IMG/VR virus record: IMGVR_UViG_2698536536_000002
Reading direction: 5' to 3' (one strand)
Length of the DNA stretch: 24,758 nucleotides
Origin: a virus
Lineage: Duplodnaviria; Heunggongvirae; Uroviricota; Caudoviricetes
The notes beneath the pieces are model-generated. The model was given only the letters and a program-made list of their open reading frames with translations. It did no database searches and was not told the DNA's origin. Made by a program: the position numbers and the translations under genes. Each line of letters starts with the position of its first letter. The stretch's first letter is position 1. Of this stretch, positions 1,641 through 16,645 are shown in pieces.

Positions 1641-4112
1641 TTAAGAATCAGCCTGACTCGGGATCAGTTTTTGCCAGATAACTGAAACGTATTTTGCCTG
1701 GTAACGGGCGTCATCAAGTGCATTATGGCGCTCACCTTCGAATGGAATAGCCGTTCTGGCATCGAAGTCTATGGCTTTCCCCAGCTCAACGATTGTGCGT
1801 ACATCGCGATCGTTGTAGTAACGCCACGGGCAGGGGATCCCCTGCCGTTCGTATGAACGGCGCAAAATCGTGTTGTCGAAGTTGGCTCCATTTCCCCAGA
1901 CCTGAACAAAAAATTCACCGGAGTTTTCGTCGATAAATTCCCGCAATTGTAACAGTGCATCATCTAACGGGATTTCATCGGTCATAATGGCAGATTGCGC
2001 TTCGCGTGATTGCTTAAGCCACCATTTAATGGTGTCCCGATCAATGACTCCGCCAGCAGTTTCCAGATCGATAGTCTTACTAAATTCCGGTCCCATATCT
2101 CCGGTTTGCGGATCGAAAAATATTGCACCTATTGAGATGATCGGGGCATCAGGATTTTTTCCCATGGTTTCAAGGTCGATCATTAGATGGTCACACGTCC
2201 TGCTGGTGGATGTGATTTCTGGATGACCGTTCACCTTAAATGAGTGATCTGCCGTCTCGCCAGTTTCATTATCGCTATCGTGATGCTGATTGCCGCCAGT
2301 GTTCTCCTTGTGTGGATGTTCAGCGCCTTCCATTTCCTCCGGATCATCTTCCTGAACTTCAACCTGATACTCTTCATCGAATGTTTCCTGGTATGTTGCG
2401 TCGCCCATTACCGCGCCACAATCAGGGCAGTTGCCGCCGCCGGTCTGACCGCAGGCGGTGCAGACTTTTTCCACTTCCTGTTGCGCCACTGATTCAGGCT
2501 GTTTCGTTTCTGGCTCGTTTTGTAACGCATTTGGGCTGTTTTGTTCCGCTTTTTGGTAGTTCCGTTCCGATTCATGCTGGTTCTGGTTCACAGAATCGCG
2601 GGTCTGGATCCCCTTGACCCATTTCGGATCATTAGGGTCGCTAATCCCCTCAACAAATTCACCACGTGATGCAGCAAGCAACTTATCGGCGTCAGGCTGG
2701 CTGATATTGGCTGCCTGCATAATTTTGTTTACTTCGTCAGCGGTAACTTTTATCGGCTCTGGTTGTGCGGTCGTGTCAGATGCACCAGTATTTTGTTGTG
2801 AACCTGAGTATGTACCGTTTTTTCGGGCAAAATATTCTTCTTTTGTGATTTCAGTGGCGCCAGCAGCCAGTGCCTTATCCAGACCAGAAAGTTTGTTTGC
2901 GCGACCGTATTTTTCGCCGACCTTATCTGCGAAGAGGAAATAGAACGGCCCCTCACGCTCTACAGATGGTTCGACTTCCACTTTGCATTCGGTTTTTTCG
3001 TTGTCCGGAATTGCCGTTTCCACTGCATCAGTTTCTGGTACTGGCGACGAGAGAGTATCAGTTGCGCTCTGATTTCTTCCTTCATCTTCAAACACGCCCT
3101 TTGTAGTCAGGTATTCAGTAATGTATTTGTTCAGTGCCACAGGGTCTTTGTGAATGTCGATCGGACGTTCACGGACAAGGCCAAAAATAGTCTGGCGGTC
3201 GTAGCGAAGGGCATCAGGCTGTTTGCGCATTGATGCCGAGATACGCTTCCAGTCTTCGCGGTCGTTATCGATAACTTCATTTTTTGCCCAGCGATGGATG
3301 CTGCCGTCAATGTTTCCGGCATCCACATCACCAGGCCAGAGAGCGTAGGCCAGTTCGTCATCCAGTGTTTTCCATGTCTGCTTGTATTCGCGATGAATGG
3401 CAGCAATGACCGGGCTGATTTTTCCTGTTGAATTTTCAGTGTACTGTTGATTGGCTCTGGCGCGGGCGAGATCAACAACAGACGTGTATTTTCCGGTTTC
3501 CTTGCGTTCACCTTCGCGACGTTTTTTCCAGATGCGCATCTCTGCCTGAATTTCGGGCCATTTAGCACCAGGAATACATTTATGCTTAACCCACCCAATG
3601 GCGTGCAACTTAAGCTCCGGATACATGGCGTTAACTTCTGGCATTTTCATCAACGCTTCAACGATATGTCCGTCGAATGTTGCCATGTCTTCCTGCAATA
3701 ATTCCTGTGCGCTAATAACCATATCAACGGTGATGTTTTCACATGTGTCGAACTTAACCATGACAGCGTTCTGTACTTCAGGGGCCAGCTTGTCAAAAAT
3801 GACGTTCATCGGATCGGATTCAGTCTCAACCGGGACAAAAGAAGCAGACTCCTCATCCCAGCGGTTTTCCTGCATATATTCAGCATCCCATGAATCGAGG
3901 GCAGGGCGGGGTATGCCAGGTTTATCCTCGCAGACAATAAATTTATAAGCGCAGTCCTGAGCAGCCGGATAATGTTCCAGGAATTGCCAGTGAAATTTTG
4001 CTCGAGCACGGCGTTCGTCGCCAGCTTCAATGGCTGTGGCTACAGCCACAGCGCCTTCTTCCCTTGTTGCCAGTTCGTCAGGAATAGCGGCGCAAATAAA
4101 GACTTTACTCAT
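1641..4112 (-). CDS. Prophage exonuclease (exodeoxyribonuclease VIII-like) with C-terminal DEDDh 3'-5' exonuclease domain
   Basis: 823-aa ORF. C-terminus shows Exo I (MIDLETMG), Exo II (WGNGANFDN) and Exo III (HNALDDARYQA) motifs of DnaQ-like exonucleases. The centre is an acidic low-complexity linker with a CxxC…CxxC zinc ribbon (CTACGQTGGGNCPDCG). Position matches the exonuclease gene downstream of the dicB operon in Qin-type prophages (remembered as the ydfE fragment in K-12). Confidence 0.7.
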   Translation of the reverse strand: MSKVFICAAIPDELATREEGAVAVATAIEAGDERRARAKFHWQFLEHYPAAQDCAYKFIVCEDKPGIPRPALDSWDAEYMQENRWDEESASFVPVETESDPMNVIFDKLAPEVQNAVMVKFDTCENITVDMVISAQELLQEDMATFDGHIVEALMKMPEVNAMYPELKLHAIGWVKHKCIPGAKWPEIQAEMRIWKKRREGERKETGKYTSVVDLARARANQQYTENSTGKISPVIAAIHREYKQTWKTLDDELAYALWPGDVDAGNIDGSIHRWAKNEVIDNDREDWKRISASMRKQPDALRYDRQTIFGLVRERPIDIHKDPVALNKYITEYLTTKGVFEDEGRNQSATDTLSSPVPETDAVETAIPDNEKTECKVEVEPSVEREGPFYFLFADKVGEKYGRANKLSGLDKALAAGATEITKEEYFARKNGTYSGSQQNTGASDTTAQPEPIKVTADEVNKIMQAANISQPDADKLLAASRGEFVEGISDPNDPKWVKGIQTRDSVNQNQHESERNYQKAEQNSPNALQNEPETKQPESVAQQEVEKVCTACGQTGGGNCPDCGAVMGDATYQETFDEEYQVEVQEDDPEEMEGAEHPHKENTGGNQHHDSDNETGETADHSFKVNGHPEITSTSRTCDHLMIDLETMGKNPDAPIISIGAIFFDPQTGDMGPEFSKTIDLETAGGVIDRDTIKWWLKQSREAQSAIMTDEIPLDDALLQLREFIDENSGEFFVQVWGNGANFDNTILRRSYERQGIPCPWRYYNDRDVRTIVELGKAIDFDARTAIPFEGERHNALDDARYQAKYVSVIWQKLIPSQADS

Positions 4113-4205: not shown

Positions 4206-4397
4206 TTAAAGACCTGCCGGGATTTCGATATTATACTGGTGAATAACTTTATCGACCGGGTAACAGTTACCGGGAATTTTCTGTTCGGTTGCTGCAGTCA
4301 TACACTCCTGCATTGTCCTGTGAACACTGACTGCAATATCAACTGGCTCTCCGGAAACAAGAAAAACTGTCAGAACAAGCGCAAATGCTGAATTCAT
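4206..4397 (-). CDS. ydfD: Small secreted protein, YdfD-like
   Basis: 63-aa product MNSAFALVLTVFLVSGEPVDIAV… with an N-terminal hydrophobic segment. Lies immediately downstream of dicB, as ydfD does in Qin. Start at the ATG at 4397; the longer track ORF (to 4451) has an N-terminal extension without a signal. Confidence 0.55.
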   Translation of the reverse strand: MNSAFALVLTVFLVSGEPVDIAVSVHRTMQECMTAATEQKIPGNCYPVDKVIHQYNIEIPAGL

Positions 4398-4582
4398 TGT
4401 GCACATCCTTTTGGCATCAGACGTAAACGAGCCAGCATTGAAACAATGCATATTTTATTTAATAGCTCCCGTTCTTGTTTTCTCTTGTTAATGGCATCTT
4501 CAGTAAATACAGGGTTACTGATAGTGACACCAATTTCAAAACAACCTTCAGACGTATTAACGTTTGGTAATAACGTTTTCAT
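4394..4582 (-). CDS. dicB: Cell-division inhibitor DicB
   Basis: 62-aa product MKTLLPNVNTSEGCFEIGVTISNPVFTEDAINKRKQERELLNKICIVSMLARLRLMPKGCAQ matches my recollection of E. coli DicB in length and sequence. GAGGA RBS 9 nt upstream of the ATG at 4582. Preceded by a DicF-like sRNA. Confidence 0.7.
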   Translation of the reverse strand: MKTLLPNVNTSEGCFEIGVTISNPVFTEDAINKRKQERELLNKICIVSMLARLRLMPKGCAQ

Positions 4583-4751
4583 TATCGCGTCCTCAACAAT
4601 GAATTTTGTGATGCAGTGCCTGGTGCCTCCAGGTGACGTTAACCAGTTAACAATTAACGCCGGATACAGAGAATCCACCCATAACACTGTTTTTGGTTTT
4701 AACTGTTCCGCGTGCGCTTAGCCGCATTCACCGCATCACAAAATTCACTTT

Positions 4752-4809
4752 AAAAACGGCGGCAGAGCAGTCACGGAGTAAAACTGATACCGCCAAACGT
4801 CACCAGAAA
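4752..4809 (-). ncRNA. dicF: DicF-like small regulatory RNA (ftsZ-targeting antisense sRNA)
   Basis: Minus-strand sequence UUUCUGGUGACGUUUGGCGGUAUCAGUUUUACUCCGUGACUGCUCUGCCGCCGUUUUU (reverse complement of 4752-4809) matches the remembered DicF sequence. It ends in GC-rich sequence plus a U-run and sits between the YdfB/C-like ORF and dicB, as in the Qin dicB operon. Exact ends are approximate. Confidence 0.55.
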
Positions 4810-5068
4810 ATTGATAACAGAGGGCGTTGCAGCGGGGTTGTCACTTAAGCGTATGGTCAACCTGACAACTCGGTGTCCTCAACGGGGAAGGAATAACCCC
4901 GCCATACTTACCGCCGCGCCATTTCGCGGGTTGCCACAACCGGAAGCGCACGGTCGAATTAAATTTAACGACACCGTACAGTGAGACGAACTTCGCCGTG
5001 CGCTTTCGTGTTGTGTGCCTGCTTTTAACCACGTCAGGCGAGGTGGTATCCTTAAAATCACCACAGTT

Positions 5069-5644
5069 TTAAGGATTCATTAAGCAATGTCGCAACCACC
5101 AATAAATCCGCTTAAGAACATGAAAATTGATTACTGGTATAAAGCGCTTACAGTTGTTGGCGCTGCGTTGTTTGTCTTTAATGGAACGTCTTTTTTTGAC
5201 AGATATCCCGTTGTTCCATTGGGTTTTTTGTCCTCCGGCATCTTTTTTATTGGTTTGGGGGAGTGGATTAATCACCCTCTCAAAGTGAGATTTATTGGTC
5301 CTGGAGTTTGGACTCGTGGATATAATCGTTCTTAGTGCGCACTCGGTATCATCTTCGACATACTTGGTTGTTTCCTGATTGTTACAGGAGTCGTCAAGTT
5401 CTTCTGATGTAAAACCGCAAATGGGGCACGTAACGGGAATTTTGAAAAGCGTTTCTCCGGGTTCCAGAACAAAATTTTCTGCGGTCTGATTTTGCTTCTC
5501 ATATTTGTGCTCCGCGTCATTGTGAGAGCACATTCTTATTCTGAGTGCCTGTTTAAACTCACTGAAGCTGAGAGCTTCTTCGCCTTCGGCAAGACCTTCG
5601 AAGTATTCTTCGTAAGCCTTTTCCATGATTGTGTCGAAATCCAT
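5069..5644 (-). CDS. YdfB/YdfC-like zinc-ribbon protein (C-terminal extent uncertain)
   Basis: ATG at 5644 with AGGTGA RBS, 2 nt after the stop of the upstream small gene. First ~104 aa look like a real protein (MDFDTIMEKAYEEYFEG…CPICGFTSEELDDSC…). The last ~90 aa are basic low-complexity and antisense to a plus-strand ORF, so the true stop may be missing or shifted. Confidence 0.45.
   Translation of the reverse strand: MDFDTIMEKAYEEYFEGLAEGEEALSFSEFKQALRIRMCSHNDAEHKYEKQNQTAENFVLEPGETLFKIPVTCPICGFTSEELDDSCNNQETTKYVEDDTECALRTIISTSPNSRTNKSHFERVINPLPQTNKKDAGGQKTQWNNGISVKKRRSIKDKQRSANNCKRFIPVINFHVLKRIYWWLRHCLMNP
5087..5335 (+). CDS. Possible small two-transmembrane-segment membrane protein (uncertain; overlaps convergent ORF)
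   Basis: 82-aa ORF with two hydrophobic segments (ALTVVGAALFVF, VVPLGFLSSGIFFIGLG). AAGGAT 11 nt upstream of the ATG, preceded by an 8-bp hairpin (5050-5074). Fully overlapped by the tail of the minus-strand ORF, so only one of the two is likely real here. Confidence 0.3.
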   Translation: MSQPPINPLKNMKIDYWYKALTVVGAALFVFNGTSFFDRYPVVPLGFLSSGIFFIGLGEWINHPLKVRFIGPGVWTRGYNRS

Positions 5645-5645
5645 A

Positions 5646-5801
5646 TCACTCACCTGAGTTTCTTTCCAGCCAGCGACGGGCACCATTTTCGGTTTTAAAC
5701 GTTTTGCTTTTGGTATACGTCATCGCGGTGAACGTACCGTCCTGGTTGGGGAACACGCCACATACCGGAGATTCGCTGTTGCCAAGATCGATAGTATCCA
5801 T
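5646..5801 (-). CDS. Small prophage protein, YdfA-like (first gene of dicB-type operon)
   Basis: 51-aa product MDTIDLGNSESPVCGVFPNQDGTFTAMTYTKSKTFKTENGARRWLERNSGE. AGGT RBS 6 nt upstream of the ATG at 5801. First gene downstream of the leftward promoter region. Confidence 0.5.
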   Translation of the reverse strand: MDTIDLGNSESPVCGVFPNQDGTFTAMTYTKSKTFKTENGARRWLERNSGE

Positions 5802-5879
5802 GCTGACCTCATTTCCCCTTAACGCCGGGGTAGCGGAACAAAAACCTGCTGCATAGTTATTAAAGTTGAACCCTGCCGT

Positions 5880-6098
5880 CATGTTCTTACGCCTCGGGCT
5901 GGCTACTTAACCCCTGACCACTGCCTGGTAACTCGAAGTATTGCCCTGCATTCTGTGGGGCGGGGTGGGTGGCAGGCATATAATGTACTTTGTGTTCATT
6001 GTTGTAAAGTACTTTTAGTACATTTTGTGTGTAAAAAAATGAGATGGGATAAAGTGAAGCACAAACCCGGAGGAAGGCGCTACCGGATTTATGCTGGT
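5880..6098 (-). promoter_or_regulatory. Leftward early promoter/operator region (dicB-operon promoter analogue)
   Basis: Non-coding interval between the repressor 3' end and the first leftward gene. Contains ATGTACT at 5983-5989 and its complement AGTACAT at 6017-6023 within the perfect palindrome GTACT-TTT-AGTAC (6009-6021). The same heptamer recurs in the rightward promoter region. Confidence 0.4.
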
Positions 6099-6518
6099 TT
6101 AAGAGGCTTTTTGTTTTTTCTTTCGTGCTAACTCTTCGTAAATTGCATTGTACTTCTGTTTTTTCTCTTCAAGAGTTTTTAAAAGTTCATCTGTCTCACT
6201 GTCAGGGAGCTCGTCCAGAAGGTCAATGATGATTTTTTGTCTTGGATTTAACTCCTGATAGAAACGTACCTGTCCACTTTCTTCTGTATCCTCTCCCAAA
6301 AGATAGGTTGGTGTTGTTCCTATTAGTGTTGCTAATTCCCTTAATTTCTCCCGGCGAGGAATTGTTTCGCCATTAAACCATTTGCTAACCGCTTTTGGTG
6401 TTAATTTCATTCGACGGGCAATTTCTGCCTGCCTTCCATGTTGTTCATAACCAGCGTTTTCACAGGCTAGCGCAAGCCTACTGGCGAACTCTTTACGCGC
6501 TTTATCTTCATGAACCAT
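6099..6518 (-). CDS. Prophage repressor, HTH XRE family (DicA/RacR-like)
   Basis: 139 aa. N-terminal helix-turn-helix (…QAEIARRMKLTPKAVSKWFNGETIP…) and an acidic/coiled C-terminal region. Divergent from a Cro-like gene. Confidence 0.8.
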   Translation of the reverse strand: MVHEDKARKEFASRLALACENAGYEQHGRQAEIARRMKLTPKAVSKWFNGETIPRREKLRELATLIGTTPTYLLGEDTEESGQVRFYQELNPRQKIIIDLLDELPDSETDELLKTLEEKKQKYNAIYEELARKKKQKAS

Positions 6519-11897: not shown

Positions 11898-12106
11898 TTA
11901 TATTGGCGAGGTGACGTGAGTTAAGTAGAATTGCTGCGGGTGCTTGAGGCTATCTGCCTCAGGCATGAACACCAAAGGCAGATAGAGAAAAGCCCCAGTT
12001 AACATTACGCGTCCTGCAAGACGCTTAACATTAATCTGAGGCCAATTTCATGCTAGACACATGTAGGTTAGCCTCTTACGTGCCGAAAGGCAAGGAGAAG
12101 CAGGCT

Positions 12107-12262
12107 ATGAAGCAGCAAAAGGCGATGTTAATCGCCCTGATCGTCATCTGTTTAACCGTCATAGTGACGGCACTGGTAACGAGGAAAGACCTCTGCGAGG
12201 TACGAATCCGAACCGGCCAGACGGAGGTCGCTGTCTTCACAGCTTACGAACCTGAGGAGTAA
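12107..12262 (+). CDS. hokD: Hok/Gef-family type I toxin (HokD/RelF-like)
   Basis: 51-aa product MKQQKAMLIALIVICLTVIVTALVTRKDLCEVRIRTGQTEVAVFTAYEPEE matches the remembered HokD/RelF sequence. AAGGAG RBS at 12092-12097. Flanked by a 10-bp-stem hairpin upstream (11950-11985) and a 9-bp hairpin (12270-12291) plus terminator downstream. Confidence 0.85.
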   Translation: MKQQKAMLIALIVICLTVIVTALVTRKDLCEVRIRTGQTEVAVFTAYEPEE

Positions 12263-15387: not shown

Positions 15388-15463
15388 ATTCTGCTCCCGG
15401 CCCTTTAGCTCAGTGGTGAGAGCGAGCGACTCATAATCGCCAGGTCGCTGGTTCAAATCCAGC
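15388..15463 (+). tRNA. tRNA with CAU anticodon (tRNA-Ile2/ileZ-like, or Met)
   Basis: 76-nt cloverleaf drawn by hand: acceptor GGCCCTT/AAGGGCC, D-stem GCTC/GAGC, anticodon loop CTCATAA, T-stem GCTGG/CCAGC, T-loop TTCAAAT, 3' ACCA. Confidence 0.85.
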
Positions 15464-15564
15464 AAGGGCCACCATCACAAACCGCCATTAGCTTATCAGG
15501 AAGAGCAGACGACACGATAACAGGGTTGTTGGTGCGGGGGCGGGTCCCCGATGGCGGTCCATTA

Positions 15565-15641
15565 TCGGTATTCAGCGTTGTTAGCTCAGCCGGACAGAGC
15601 AATTGCCTTCTAAGCAATCGGTCACTGGTTCGAATCCAGTA
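15565..15641 (+). tRNA. tRNA-Arg (UCU anticodon; argN/argO/argU-like)
   Basis: 77-nt cloverleaf: acceptor GCGTTGT/ACAGCGC (one G-U), anticodon stem ATTGC/GCAAT with loop CTTCTAA, T-stem ACTGG/CCAGT, T-loop TTCGAAT, 3' GCCA. Confidence 0.85.
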
Positions 15642-15761
15642 CAGCGCGCCATATTCATTCTTCCAGATTCCTTCCGGCAGAGCCTTATACTGGAATATAC
15701 CTGGCTCAGGATATTGTTGAAAACATAATATGTTTGTCAAAAATAAAAGTTCTGTTAAGTA

Positions 15762-16115: not shown

Positions 16116-16645
16116 ATACATATCTGGATTATCACCTGTTACGGTAAAAAGTGATTGCTTACTGTTTTTGTGAATGGCATTGCAGCAGCCGGATAATGTC
16201 AGTGCTGGCTGACGGTGTGCTGGTGGCGGGTGTGGTGGTTGCTTTCCCGTTGCTGAAAAAGAAAACGCCAGACTGTTAGCCGGGTATCAGTTAGCGGGAG
16301 AAATTTTTAAATACTTCACAATTCAGGCGGTTGACTGTTCTCTGGTTTGCGGGGAGTTTGTTAAAAGAAACTGGCATGGTGAATCCCCCTGTGCGGAGGG
16401 GCAATCAGCGAGTAGGTATATGGGATAATCGCGGATTCAGGTGCTGGTACTGAATTCACCGGGAGGCACCCGGCACCATGCACTTAAATAGATTCTCTCC
16501 ACATTATGGATATTCTTTCAGAATATCCCACGCAGACTTTGTGTAAATGTTAACAAATGTGCGTTTTATTTGATCTGATTCGCTGTTTGAGCGTCCAAAA
16601 CAACGGTATATATAATCCTTTACTATATGACATATGTGAGAAAAA

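Follow-up and report, generated by a model that had tools for sequence, protein, structure and literature searches.

The window discussed here, a stretch of 24,758 nucleotides (nt) from a virus of the class Caudoviricetes (IMG/VR record IMGVR_UViG_2698536536_000002), contains a leftward cell-division-inhibition operon of the dicBF type in which a cassette of two overlapping genes, encoded on opposite strands, lies between the beginning of ydfB and the gene of the small RNA (sRNA) DicF (Table 1). The published order of the dicBF operon is ydfA, ydfB, ydfC, a long untranslated region with dicF, and then dicB and ydfD (PMC5069750). The window has ydfA, an open reading frame (ORF) derived from ydfB, DicF, dicB and ydfD in this same order, and the results from Rfam, Pfam and RefSeq agree, so that the original prediction of a Qin-type dicBF operon, made from the sequence alone, is confirmed. 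In addition, the RefSeq genome CP025892, which is identical to the window over 4820-5700, has ydfD, dicB, a truncated ydfB, ydfA and a DicA-like helix-turn-helix (HTH) repressor annotated at the matching coordinates. While the operon and DicF are known from earlier work, the cassette is an uncharacterised one, and most of what follows concerns it.

Compared with the Qin dicBF operon of Escherichia coli K-12, the window has the same gene order and strand, and the dicF leader and the promoter region on the repressor side are common to both, but ydfC and the last eight codons of ydfB are missing and the two-gene cassette stands in their place. In phages Tritos and 606R7 the operon is of the K-12 type; aligned with them, the window shows the replaced segment at ~5016-5545 (~530 base pairs, bp), unrelated to their sequence. 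YdfB is 42 amino acids (aa) long at full length, and only residues 1-34 are kept here, fused in frame to an ORF of the cassette. The resulting minus-strand ORF (hereafter, the minus ORF) is open over 205 codons (5069-5686), or 191 when counted from the YdfB start codon (5069-5644). It had been described as a fused "YdfB/C-like" ORF; only half of this description stands, because residues 1-34 match YdfB at 34/34 positions and nothing matches YdfC (BLASTP against the 72-aa YdfC gave E=16), the remainder being foreign cassette. Its naming in RefSeq is inconsistent, either a pseudogene ("ydfB, incomplete, missing C-terminus") or a hypothetical protein of 191 aa, and in PHROGs it belongs to phrog_35040, of "unknown function". 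The variant is common: at least 80% of positions 4820-5700 are covered in 793/5426 complete E. coli genomes. A third, unrelated cassette is found between ydfB and dicF in O157-type prophages (L006, 1826-2587), with two non-overlapping ORFs, one of 61 aa on the plus strand and one of 129 aa on the minus strand.

Table 1. Features of the dicBF operon and of its two-gene cassette, with positions in the window.
Feature	Position	Strand	Basis
ydfD (DUF1482, "lysis protein YdfD"), last operon gene in the window	4206-4397	minus	Pfam PF07358, 89 bits; RefSeq CP025892 annotation
dicB, cell-division inhibitor, 62 aa	4394-4582	minus	Pfam PF05358, 136.8 bits (cut-off 27), residues 1-62/62; RefSeq annotation
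DicF sRNA and U-run of its terminator hairpin	4752-4808 (Rfam match 4757-4808)	minus	Rfam RF00039
Untranslated leader upstream of dicF, common to K-12-type operons	4809-5015	minus	Alignment with Tritos and 606R7
Conserved 5' element: hairpins, candidate extended -10, AAGGA, minus stop 5069-5071	5016-5086	plus	Alignment with L007
Tail of the minus ORF: 112 sense codons (5072-5407) and stop (5069-5071)	5069-5407	minus	Antisense to the whole plus gene, same register
Small membrane-protein gene, 106 codons in relatives, amber at 5333-5335 here	5087-5407	plus	Homologs, codon-position bias, AlphaFold
Cassette-derived N-terminal coding part, with internal ATG 5531-5533 and CPICGF knuckle 5411-5428	5408-5542	minus	Motif hF.IP..CP[IV]CGF, codon-position bias
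ydfB-derived 5' end, 34 codons, in-frame fusion to cassette ORF	5543-5644	minus	YdfB of phage Tritos, 34/34 identical; phrog_2061
ydfA (DUF1391), first operon gene	5646-5801	minus	Pfam PF07151, 90.1 bits; RefSeq annotation
Promoter-like site TTTACA-17-CATTAT, candidate repressor-controlled operon promoter	5980-6008	minus	Consensus scan

The gene on the plus strand of the cassette (hereafter, the plus gene) encodes a small protein of membrane character. The ORF of 82 aa predicted at 5087-5335 exists, lies wholly within the minus ORF and has the same codon register, but the two-segment product ascribed to it is not the form of the gene: it is a truncated allele of a gene of 106 codons and three helices. 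In phage HannyBb and strain MS20675 the ORF has 106 codons, with TCG at codon 83 where the window has TAG, and the full-length frame would end in the window at TGA 5405-5407. The 23 extra residues of the longer form make a third hydrophobic segment, so the 82-aa version is without helix 3. The TAG allele is found in 2/120 fetched copies and in 44/787 complete E. coli genomes holding the segment; these 44 match a 61-nt segment of the window exactly, with no annotated feature there in the 12 records listed. Strains B7A and 503025 are among the carriers of the amber allele. Judging from its relatives, the copy in the window is knocked out by a minority amber mutation at codon 83.

Yersinia, Herminiimonas, Reinekea and many metagenomes encode full-length homologs of the plus protein (34-58% identical), with the invariant motifs DYWYKA and GxGEWxNHP. 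A profile search gave 476 clusters at E<=0.001, and among the best 150 listed most have 100-115 aa; many members of the family lie outside prophages. Between lineages, it is the third codon positions of the plus gene that take most substitutions (differences at positions 1/2/3 of 11/8/35, 38/22/55 and 41/24/59), and the comparison accordingly indicates that the gene is real and under purifying selection at the protein level. Its AlphaFold model (predicted local distance difference test, pLDDT, of 82.8) has a beta hairpin at residues 65-79 in addition to helices at 17-32, 42-62 and 85-105. The protein had no match in Pfam, NCBIfam, PADLOC or PHROGs, and its model had none at E<=0.001 in viral and PDB fold libraries, nor did a sequence-profile search of the PDB give one. 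In a Shigella flexneri copy (L039, 4001-4282) the plus gene is frameshifted after 11 codons and the antisense frame has three stops, both being decayed.

The minus ORF begins with a part that evolves as a protein. Immediately 3' of the plus stop codon, its frame encodes a conserved peptide of the form hF.IP..CP[IV]CGF, with a single CPxCG knuckle: LFKIPVTCPICGFT in the window, ILCRIPVVCPVCGFT in L015, ICFIPTECPICGFV in the P0013-type lineage, IFSIPIECPICGFR in Yersinia and ITPFYFNCPKCGHR in Roseateles, with FKFTPLHxxCPxCG[CF]D in four metagenome lineages. Some of the differences between these peptides are synonymous in the minus frame (CCC/CCT, TGC/TGT), and over 22 peptide codons the differences at minus positions 1/2/3 are 7/4/18, 5/6/14 and 3/4/8. 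Among 82 near-identical E. coli copies, 7/13 single-nucleotide polymorphisms in 5408-5686 are at minus position 3. The ~25-40 residues just ahead of the overlap evolve as coding sequence, and on these comparisons the minus ORF's N-terminal part is under purifying selection at the protein level.

We could not retain the assignment of this ORF to the zinc-ribbon proteins, as in the original prediction: one CPxCG knuckle is conserved with no second Cys/His pair, and all Pfam zinc-ribbon matches (11-16 bits) are far below their cut-offs (23-26). The UniRef name of the Roseateles homolog, "FmdB zinc ribbon", is a lead only. Searches of Pfam, NCBIfam, PADLOC and PHROGs, and of folds, gave only phrog_35040 and a chance-level match to a PADLOC CARF-domain model (12.2 bits, E=0.027). 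The knuckle (CPICGF) is ~600 bp from DicF, not the ~500 bp first estimated. Homologs of the plus gene in Desulfobulbales are accompanied by a convergent, non-overlapping gene of 84-88 aa with the peptide "TCPSCGMFHL" (L040 3200-3454, L041 4497-4751, L043 4374-4640, L045 4321-4575, all minus). Possibly this gene is related to the minus ORF and simply closes with an ordinary stop codon, the similarity being too short for a decision.

Beyond the knuckle, the minus frame continues antisense to the whole plus gene. The extension had been estimated at about 90 codons and amounts to 112, and in the window it ends 5 codons past the plus start codon. In the shared register, position 3 of the plus codons pairs with position 1 of the minus codons, and a stop in the antisense frame requires TTA, CTA or TCA in the plus gene. 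None of these codons is used in any lineage bearing the CPxCG motif; in the neighbouring genes of these lineages, TTA or CTA makes up 28% of the leucine codons and TCA 22% of the serine codons. The frame is stop-free in 10/10 non-redundant motif lineages (E. coli, Yersinia, Roseateles and metagenomes among them), vs. 14/49 lineages without the motif (Fisher 3e-5), and in each motif lineage the minus ORF ends 3-15 codons past the plus start codon. Among 21 homologs without an intact motif at a guanine-cytosine (GC) content of at most 0.45, the only stop-free one is L014, a motif lineage whose CPVC motif precedes a stop codon.

We quantified the absence of stops with a logistic fit on GC content obtained from the homologs without the motif. 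It gave a probability of no stop of 0.07-0.14 in three metagenome lineages, and of 0.011 in E. coli, in the P0013-type lineage and in Yersinia alike. Summed over seven lineage clusters, TTA, CTA and TCA account for 0/128 leucine and serine codons, vs. ~19 expected, and the product of the seven probabilities is ~7e-10 when the clusters are treated as independent. The third-position composition of the plus genes themselves predicts ~42 stops in the motif group, and 0 were seen. Both frames are open in independent lineages beyond chance, and we conclude from these counts that the minus tail is selected to contain no stop codon. The choice posed initially, between a genuine embedded gene and a decaying remnant in one of the two frames, is therefore not the appropriate one: the plus gene is genuine yet carries an amber codon here, and the minus frame, with its coding N-terminal part and its 10/10 stop-free lineages, is no remnant.

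Some lineages are stop-free although they do not have the motif; among these, e.g., the Pantoea type, L179 and L185 seem to share the architecture, with an N-terminus that differs or is damaged. In the Pantoea-type modules (L022 3965-4420 minus, L192, L194), the plus gene is likewise covered by an antisense ORF of ~150 aa, in register and without stops, whose N-terminus reads FFEHL..PGSV..GW[DK], with no CPxCG upstream of the overlap.

The residues encoded by the tail follow a different rule from its frame. Within the overlap, substitutions between motif lineages fall on plus position 3 (15/9/50 and 17/11/57 at positions 1/2/3), and identity in the plus frame exceeds identity in the minus frame in every lineage comparison. 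The fourfold-degenerate sites of the plus gene inside the overlap differ by 50-72% between lineages, about the same as the fourfold sites of the minus N-terminal part. Identity of the tail in the minus frame is 0.30-0.41 when distant enterobacterial lineages are compared and 0.31-0.52 among the motif lineages from the environment and Roseateles; this is explained by the plus protein, e.g., its tryptophan codons force proline in the tail. Substitutions in the overlap thus follow the plus frame only, with no sign of purifying selection on both proteins. Because stops are avoided while fourfold sites vary freely, these data indicate that the minus frame is maintained and that its tail residues are not conserved. 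In the AlphaFold model of the minus protein, the YdfB-derived helices alone are confident and the tail has pLDDT <50, which, given the shallow alignment, is weak evidence for disorder.

The same pair of genes is found in different prophage backbones, with limits to the homology around it, and because of this we regard the two-gene module, on comparative grounds, as a mobile unit. The P0013-type module was found in four different backbones. When distant lineages are compared, the homology sets in 77-84 bp upstream of the plus ATG and extends no further than ~+45 past the plus stop. The site between ydfB and dicF looks like a hot spot for cassette exchange. In E. coli, P0013-type prophages, Yersinia, Pantoea and Roseateles, the module is placed between a repressor-type gene and the early operon, with the minus ORF in the direction of the operon. 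The position beside repressors suggests that the plus gene may be expressed in the lysogen, possibly for exclusion. The metagenome locus L171 has the reversed orientation, the plus gene being co-directional with the repressor and the neighbouring genes. No gene follows the minus ORF on its strand in L171 or in L178, and both loci still have the motif and the open frame. Because the minus ORF is solitary in these two loci, the cause of the open frame must lie within the gene pair, and not only in polarity on downstream genes.

The module begins with a conserved 5' element, ~87% identical to that of the L007 lineage, compared with ~64% for the coding sequence. It includes two hairpins, GCCTG..CAGGC and ATCCTTAAAA..TTTTAAGGAT, the latter at ~5049-5077 and roughly conserved in relatives; the ribosome-binding site and the upstream hairpin claimed for the plus ORF are indeed there, as an AAGGA Shine-Dalgarno-like sequence inside this second hairpin. 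We considered a structured RNA at this element and set it aside, since the two hairpins show only one compensatory pair. A simple scan detected neither a consensus promoter of the plus gene nor a terminator in the stretch between the two genes; TGgTATCCT, which we read by eye outside the scan, is a candidate extended -10 of the plus gene. A block of 50-60 nt (GTGCCTG.CTTTTA.CCAC.TCAGGC...GTGGTATCCT) recurs at 5016-5066 in the window, 3925-3975 in L007 and 525-580 in L011, and could be a promoter or operator, or a signal for the 3' end of the minus ORF. In P0013-type prophages, a transfer RNA (tRNA) gene (L008, 3803-3875 minus) or a tRNA-like fragment (L007, ~3876-3905) abuts the 5' element. 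Rfam revealed no new RNA at the module in the related loci; it matched, in L014 and L015, DicF, C4 and isrK, and in L008 the tRNA. The C4 antisense RNA and isrK are just downstream of DicF in KilR-type prophages with a diverged module (L014 2242-2430, L015 2257-2445, minus).

Downstream of the module, the sRNA predicted at 4752-4809 of the minus strand corresponds to DicF, with an RF00039 match of 72.5 bits (gathering score 48, E=1.9e-14) that covers model positions 1-52/52 with no mismatched pairs flagged. Its 3' end is readable as a hairpin and a TTTTT run at 4752-4795, the T-run extending to ~4752; dicB follows 174 bp downstream. The DicF stretch is invariant in the alignment with phages HannyBb, Tritos and 606R7, and the leader aligns with Tritos and 606R7, with patchy divergence from ~4930 on. 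The full match to the covariance model, together with the site in the untranslated leader upstream of dicB in an operon led by ydfA, identifies DicF as genuine. The candidate operon promoter is between ydfA and the DicA-like HTH gene (6099-6518); since the number of promoter-like sites in the scan is not above chance, it is argued from position alone. Directly downstream of ydfD there is an exonuclease ORF of 823 aa (1641-4112 minus), open in the window, whose RefSeq counterpart in the identical genome is an incomplete pseudogene. The prophage also encodes a hok/sok-type type I toxin-antitoxin locus (Rfam sok antitoxin RNA, 11938-12112 plus, 119.9 bits), the STnc100 sRNA (16345-16535 plus, 113 bits) and two tRNA genes on the plus strand, at 15399-15474 (anticodon CAT; ARAGORN: tRNA-Met) and 15575-15651 (tRNA-Arg(TCT)).

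The locus is a Qin-type dicBF operon carrying a mobile two-gene module of ~530 bp in which both frames are selected to remain open, and we hold our reading of it, taken as a whole, to be probable. The minus ORF converges on the plus gene and consists of a short domain with the CPxCG knuckle followed by a codon-for-codon antisense stretch that runs past the plus start codon; in the mechanism we propose, what would matter in its tail is the uninterrupted transit of ribosomes. A published study describes Rho as ending untranslated transcripts, antisense ones included (PMC11551753). Translation would shield the antisense transcript from Rho and let it cross the plus gene and its promoter. The expression of the two genes would be mutually exclusive, with the plus gene silenced when the minus promoter fires, and early-left transcription in this prophage would by this route also get to dicF and dicB. 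A stop-free, unconserved ORF that ends at the promoter region of its partner fits such a transit device. We hold the ribosome-transit mechanism itself more tentatively, as possible but somewhat doubtful. The broadest version, in which a translated antisense switch, i.e., a zinc-knuckle ORF extended without stops, would be spread from enterobacterial prophages to betaproteobacteria and environmental bacteria and would gate DicF and DicB in ~15% of E. coli genomes, is rather unlikely at present.

Several observations weigh against this interpretation. High-GC lineages add little to the signal (the probability of no stop is 0.64 for Roseateles), and the null is overdispersed, with 12/46 motif-less homologs stop-free vs. 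3.5 predicted, so that the joint probability overstates significance; moreover, the lineages are not fully independent and gene starts were picked heuristically. L173 has a stop inside the minus N-terminal part, and in 3/126 copies of the E. coli type the minus tail is interrupted by a stop with the plus gene intact, from which the open frame appears inessential in the short term. The natural polymorphism 5245 T>A creates a stop of this kind that is synonymous in the plus gene. A few of the 126 copies have lesions in the plus gene, and both genes are occasionally inactivated. Relief of polarity downstream cannot be the general cause of the open frame, given L171 and L178. Finally, in motif lineages of low GC the tail is less hydrophobic (0.25-0.28) than the corresponding frame of other homologs with comparable GC (0.30-0.41), which hints at some compositional constraint and hence at a role for the protein.

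This last point bears directly on true dual coding, in which the full-length minus protein would be functional, as a CPxCG knuckle with a hydrophilic, partly basic tail of ~115 aa acting by its length, charge or disorder, e.g., as a nucleic-acid-binding or protease-sensitive extension. Such a protein would also account for the frame being open in 10/10 motif lineages, for a cause of openness that lies within the module (the minus ORF being solitary in L171 and L178), and it would fit a tail whose 31-52% identity comes at no cost from the constraint on the plus gene itself. However, the synonymous rate of the plus gene does not fall within the overlap, as its divergent fourfold sites attest, conservation of residues in the tail is limited to sites imposed by the plus protein (e.g., at the tryptophan codons), and AlphaFold confidence is below 50 across the tail (with a shallow alignment), with no match to a family or fold. 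We regard dual coding as the main alternative, albeit a rather unlikely one. If polarity relief were the only explanation, the plus gene would be an antisense "moron" in the early-left operon and the minus frame would be open solely to keep the operon transcript translated as far as the downstream genes, dicF and dicB. This fits the minus ORF being in, or before, a co-directional block of minus-strand genes in E. coli, P0013-type prophages, Pantoea (without CPxCG) and Roseateles, the module being beside a repressor-type gene in these four and in Yersinia, and the strongest signal coming from three low-GC enterobacterial lineages. But L171, where the plus gene is co-directional with the repressor, and L178, where the minus ORF is solitary, are both open and carry the motif, and the conserved N-terminal peptide of the minus ORF is left unexplained, which makes a polarity-only reading improbable.

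The antisense frame in register with a gene is the one most often open in bacterial genes, and the tail could in principle be a shadow ORF, open by chance or codon bias, with only the plus gene or a short minus peptide being real. The 14/49 stop-free lineages without the motif, mostly at GC of at least 0.47, and the inconsistent RefSeq annotation of the minus ORF are what one would expect from such a shadow. It is contradicted by the low probability (~0.011) that stops would be lacking, which applies to each of three low-GC lineages nearly saturated at synonymous sites relative to one another, by openness tracking the CPxCG motif, and by the ~42 stops predicted from third-position composition in the motif group, where none was seen. 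These comparisons effectively exclude chance as the cause of the open frame and leave a shadow ORF very improbable.

The gene pair matters in several respects. Bacterial genes fully embedded antisense in others are disputed, as most candidates are without evolutionary support; for this pair there is evidence from comparison. Lineages with near-saturated synonymous sites repeat one overlap architecture, in which the open frame is required and the residues are variable, and this split between frame and residues makes a testable idea: selection would maintain translation itself, not the protein. About one complete E. coli genome in seven has the module interposed between dicF/dicB and the promoter of the operon, and the expression of these division inhibitors may therefore be affected. 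In the literature we found no published name for this cassette, nor antisense overlapping candidates at this locus, with such comparative support or with such a split between frame and sequence; a search of one preprint on overlapping genes yielded no ydf gene.

The pair can be compared with three kinds of known systems. As in the hok/sok type I loci, an antisense transcript faces a gene whose product is a small, hydrophobic protein of the membrane. Here, unlike in hok/sok, the plus protein has 106 aa and three helices, its antisense partner is an ORF of 142-221 codons and not a short non-coding RNA, and there is no family match. Exclusion genes of the lambda RexB and P22 SieB type encode small membrane proteins beside the repressor gene of temperate phages. 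The plus gene resembles them in lying beside a cI-type repressor, in its small size and in its membrane character, but its protein has no similarity in sequence, PHROG, PADLOC or fold to known exclusion or defence proteins. The closest parallel in architecture is given by the antisense overlapping gene candidates of E. coli (enterohaemorrhagic E. coli, EHEC, and LF82; Neuhaus, Scherer et al.), in which one coding ORF is also fully embedded antisense in another. As far as that work was consulted, those candidates rest on ribosome profiling (Ribo-seq), RNA sequencing (RNA-seq) and growth phenotypes, whereas the present pair rests on comparison across Enterobacterales, a betaproteobacterium and metagenomes; and, unlike in those candidates, the embedded ORF is here the older and strongly conserved one, with the overlap of the enclosing ORF reduced to the avoidance of stops.

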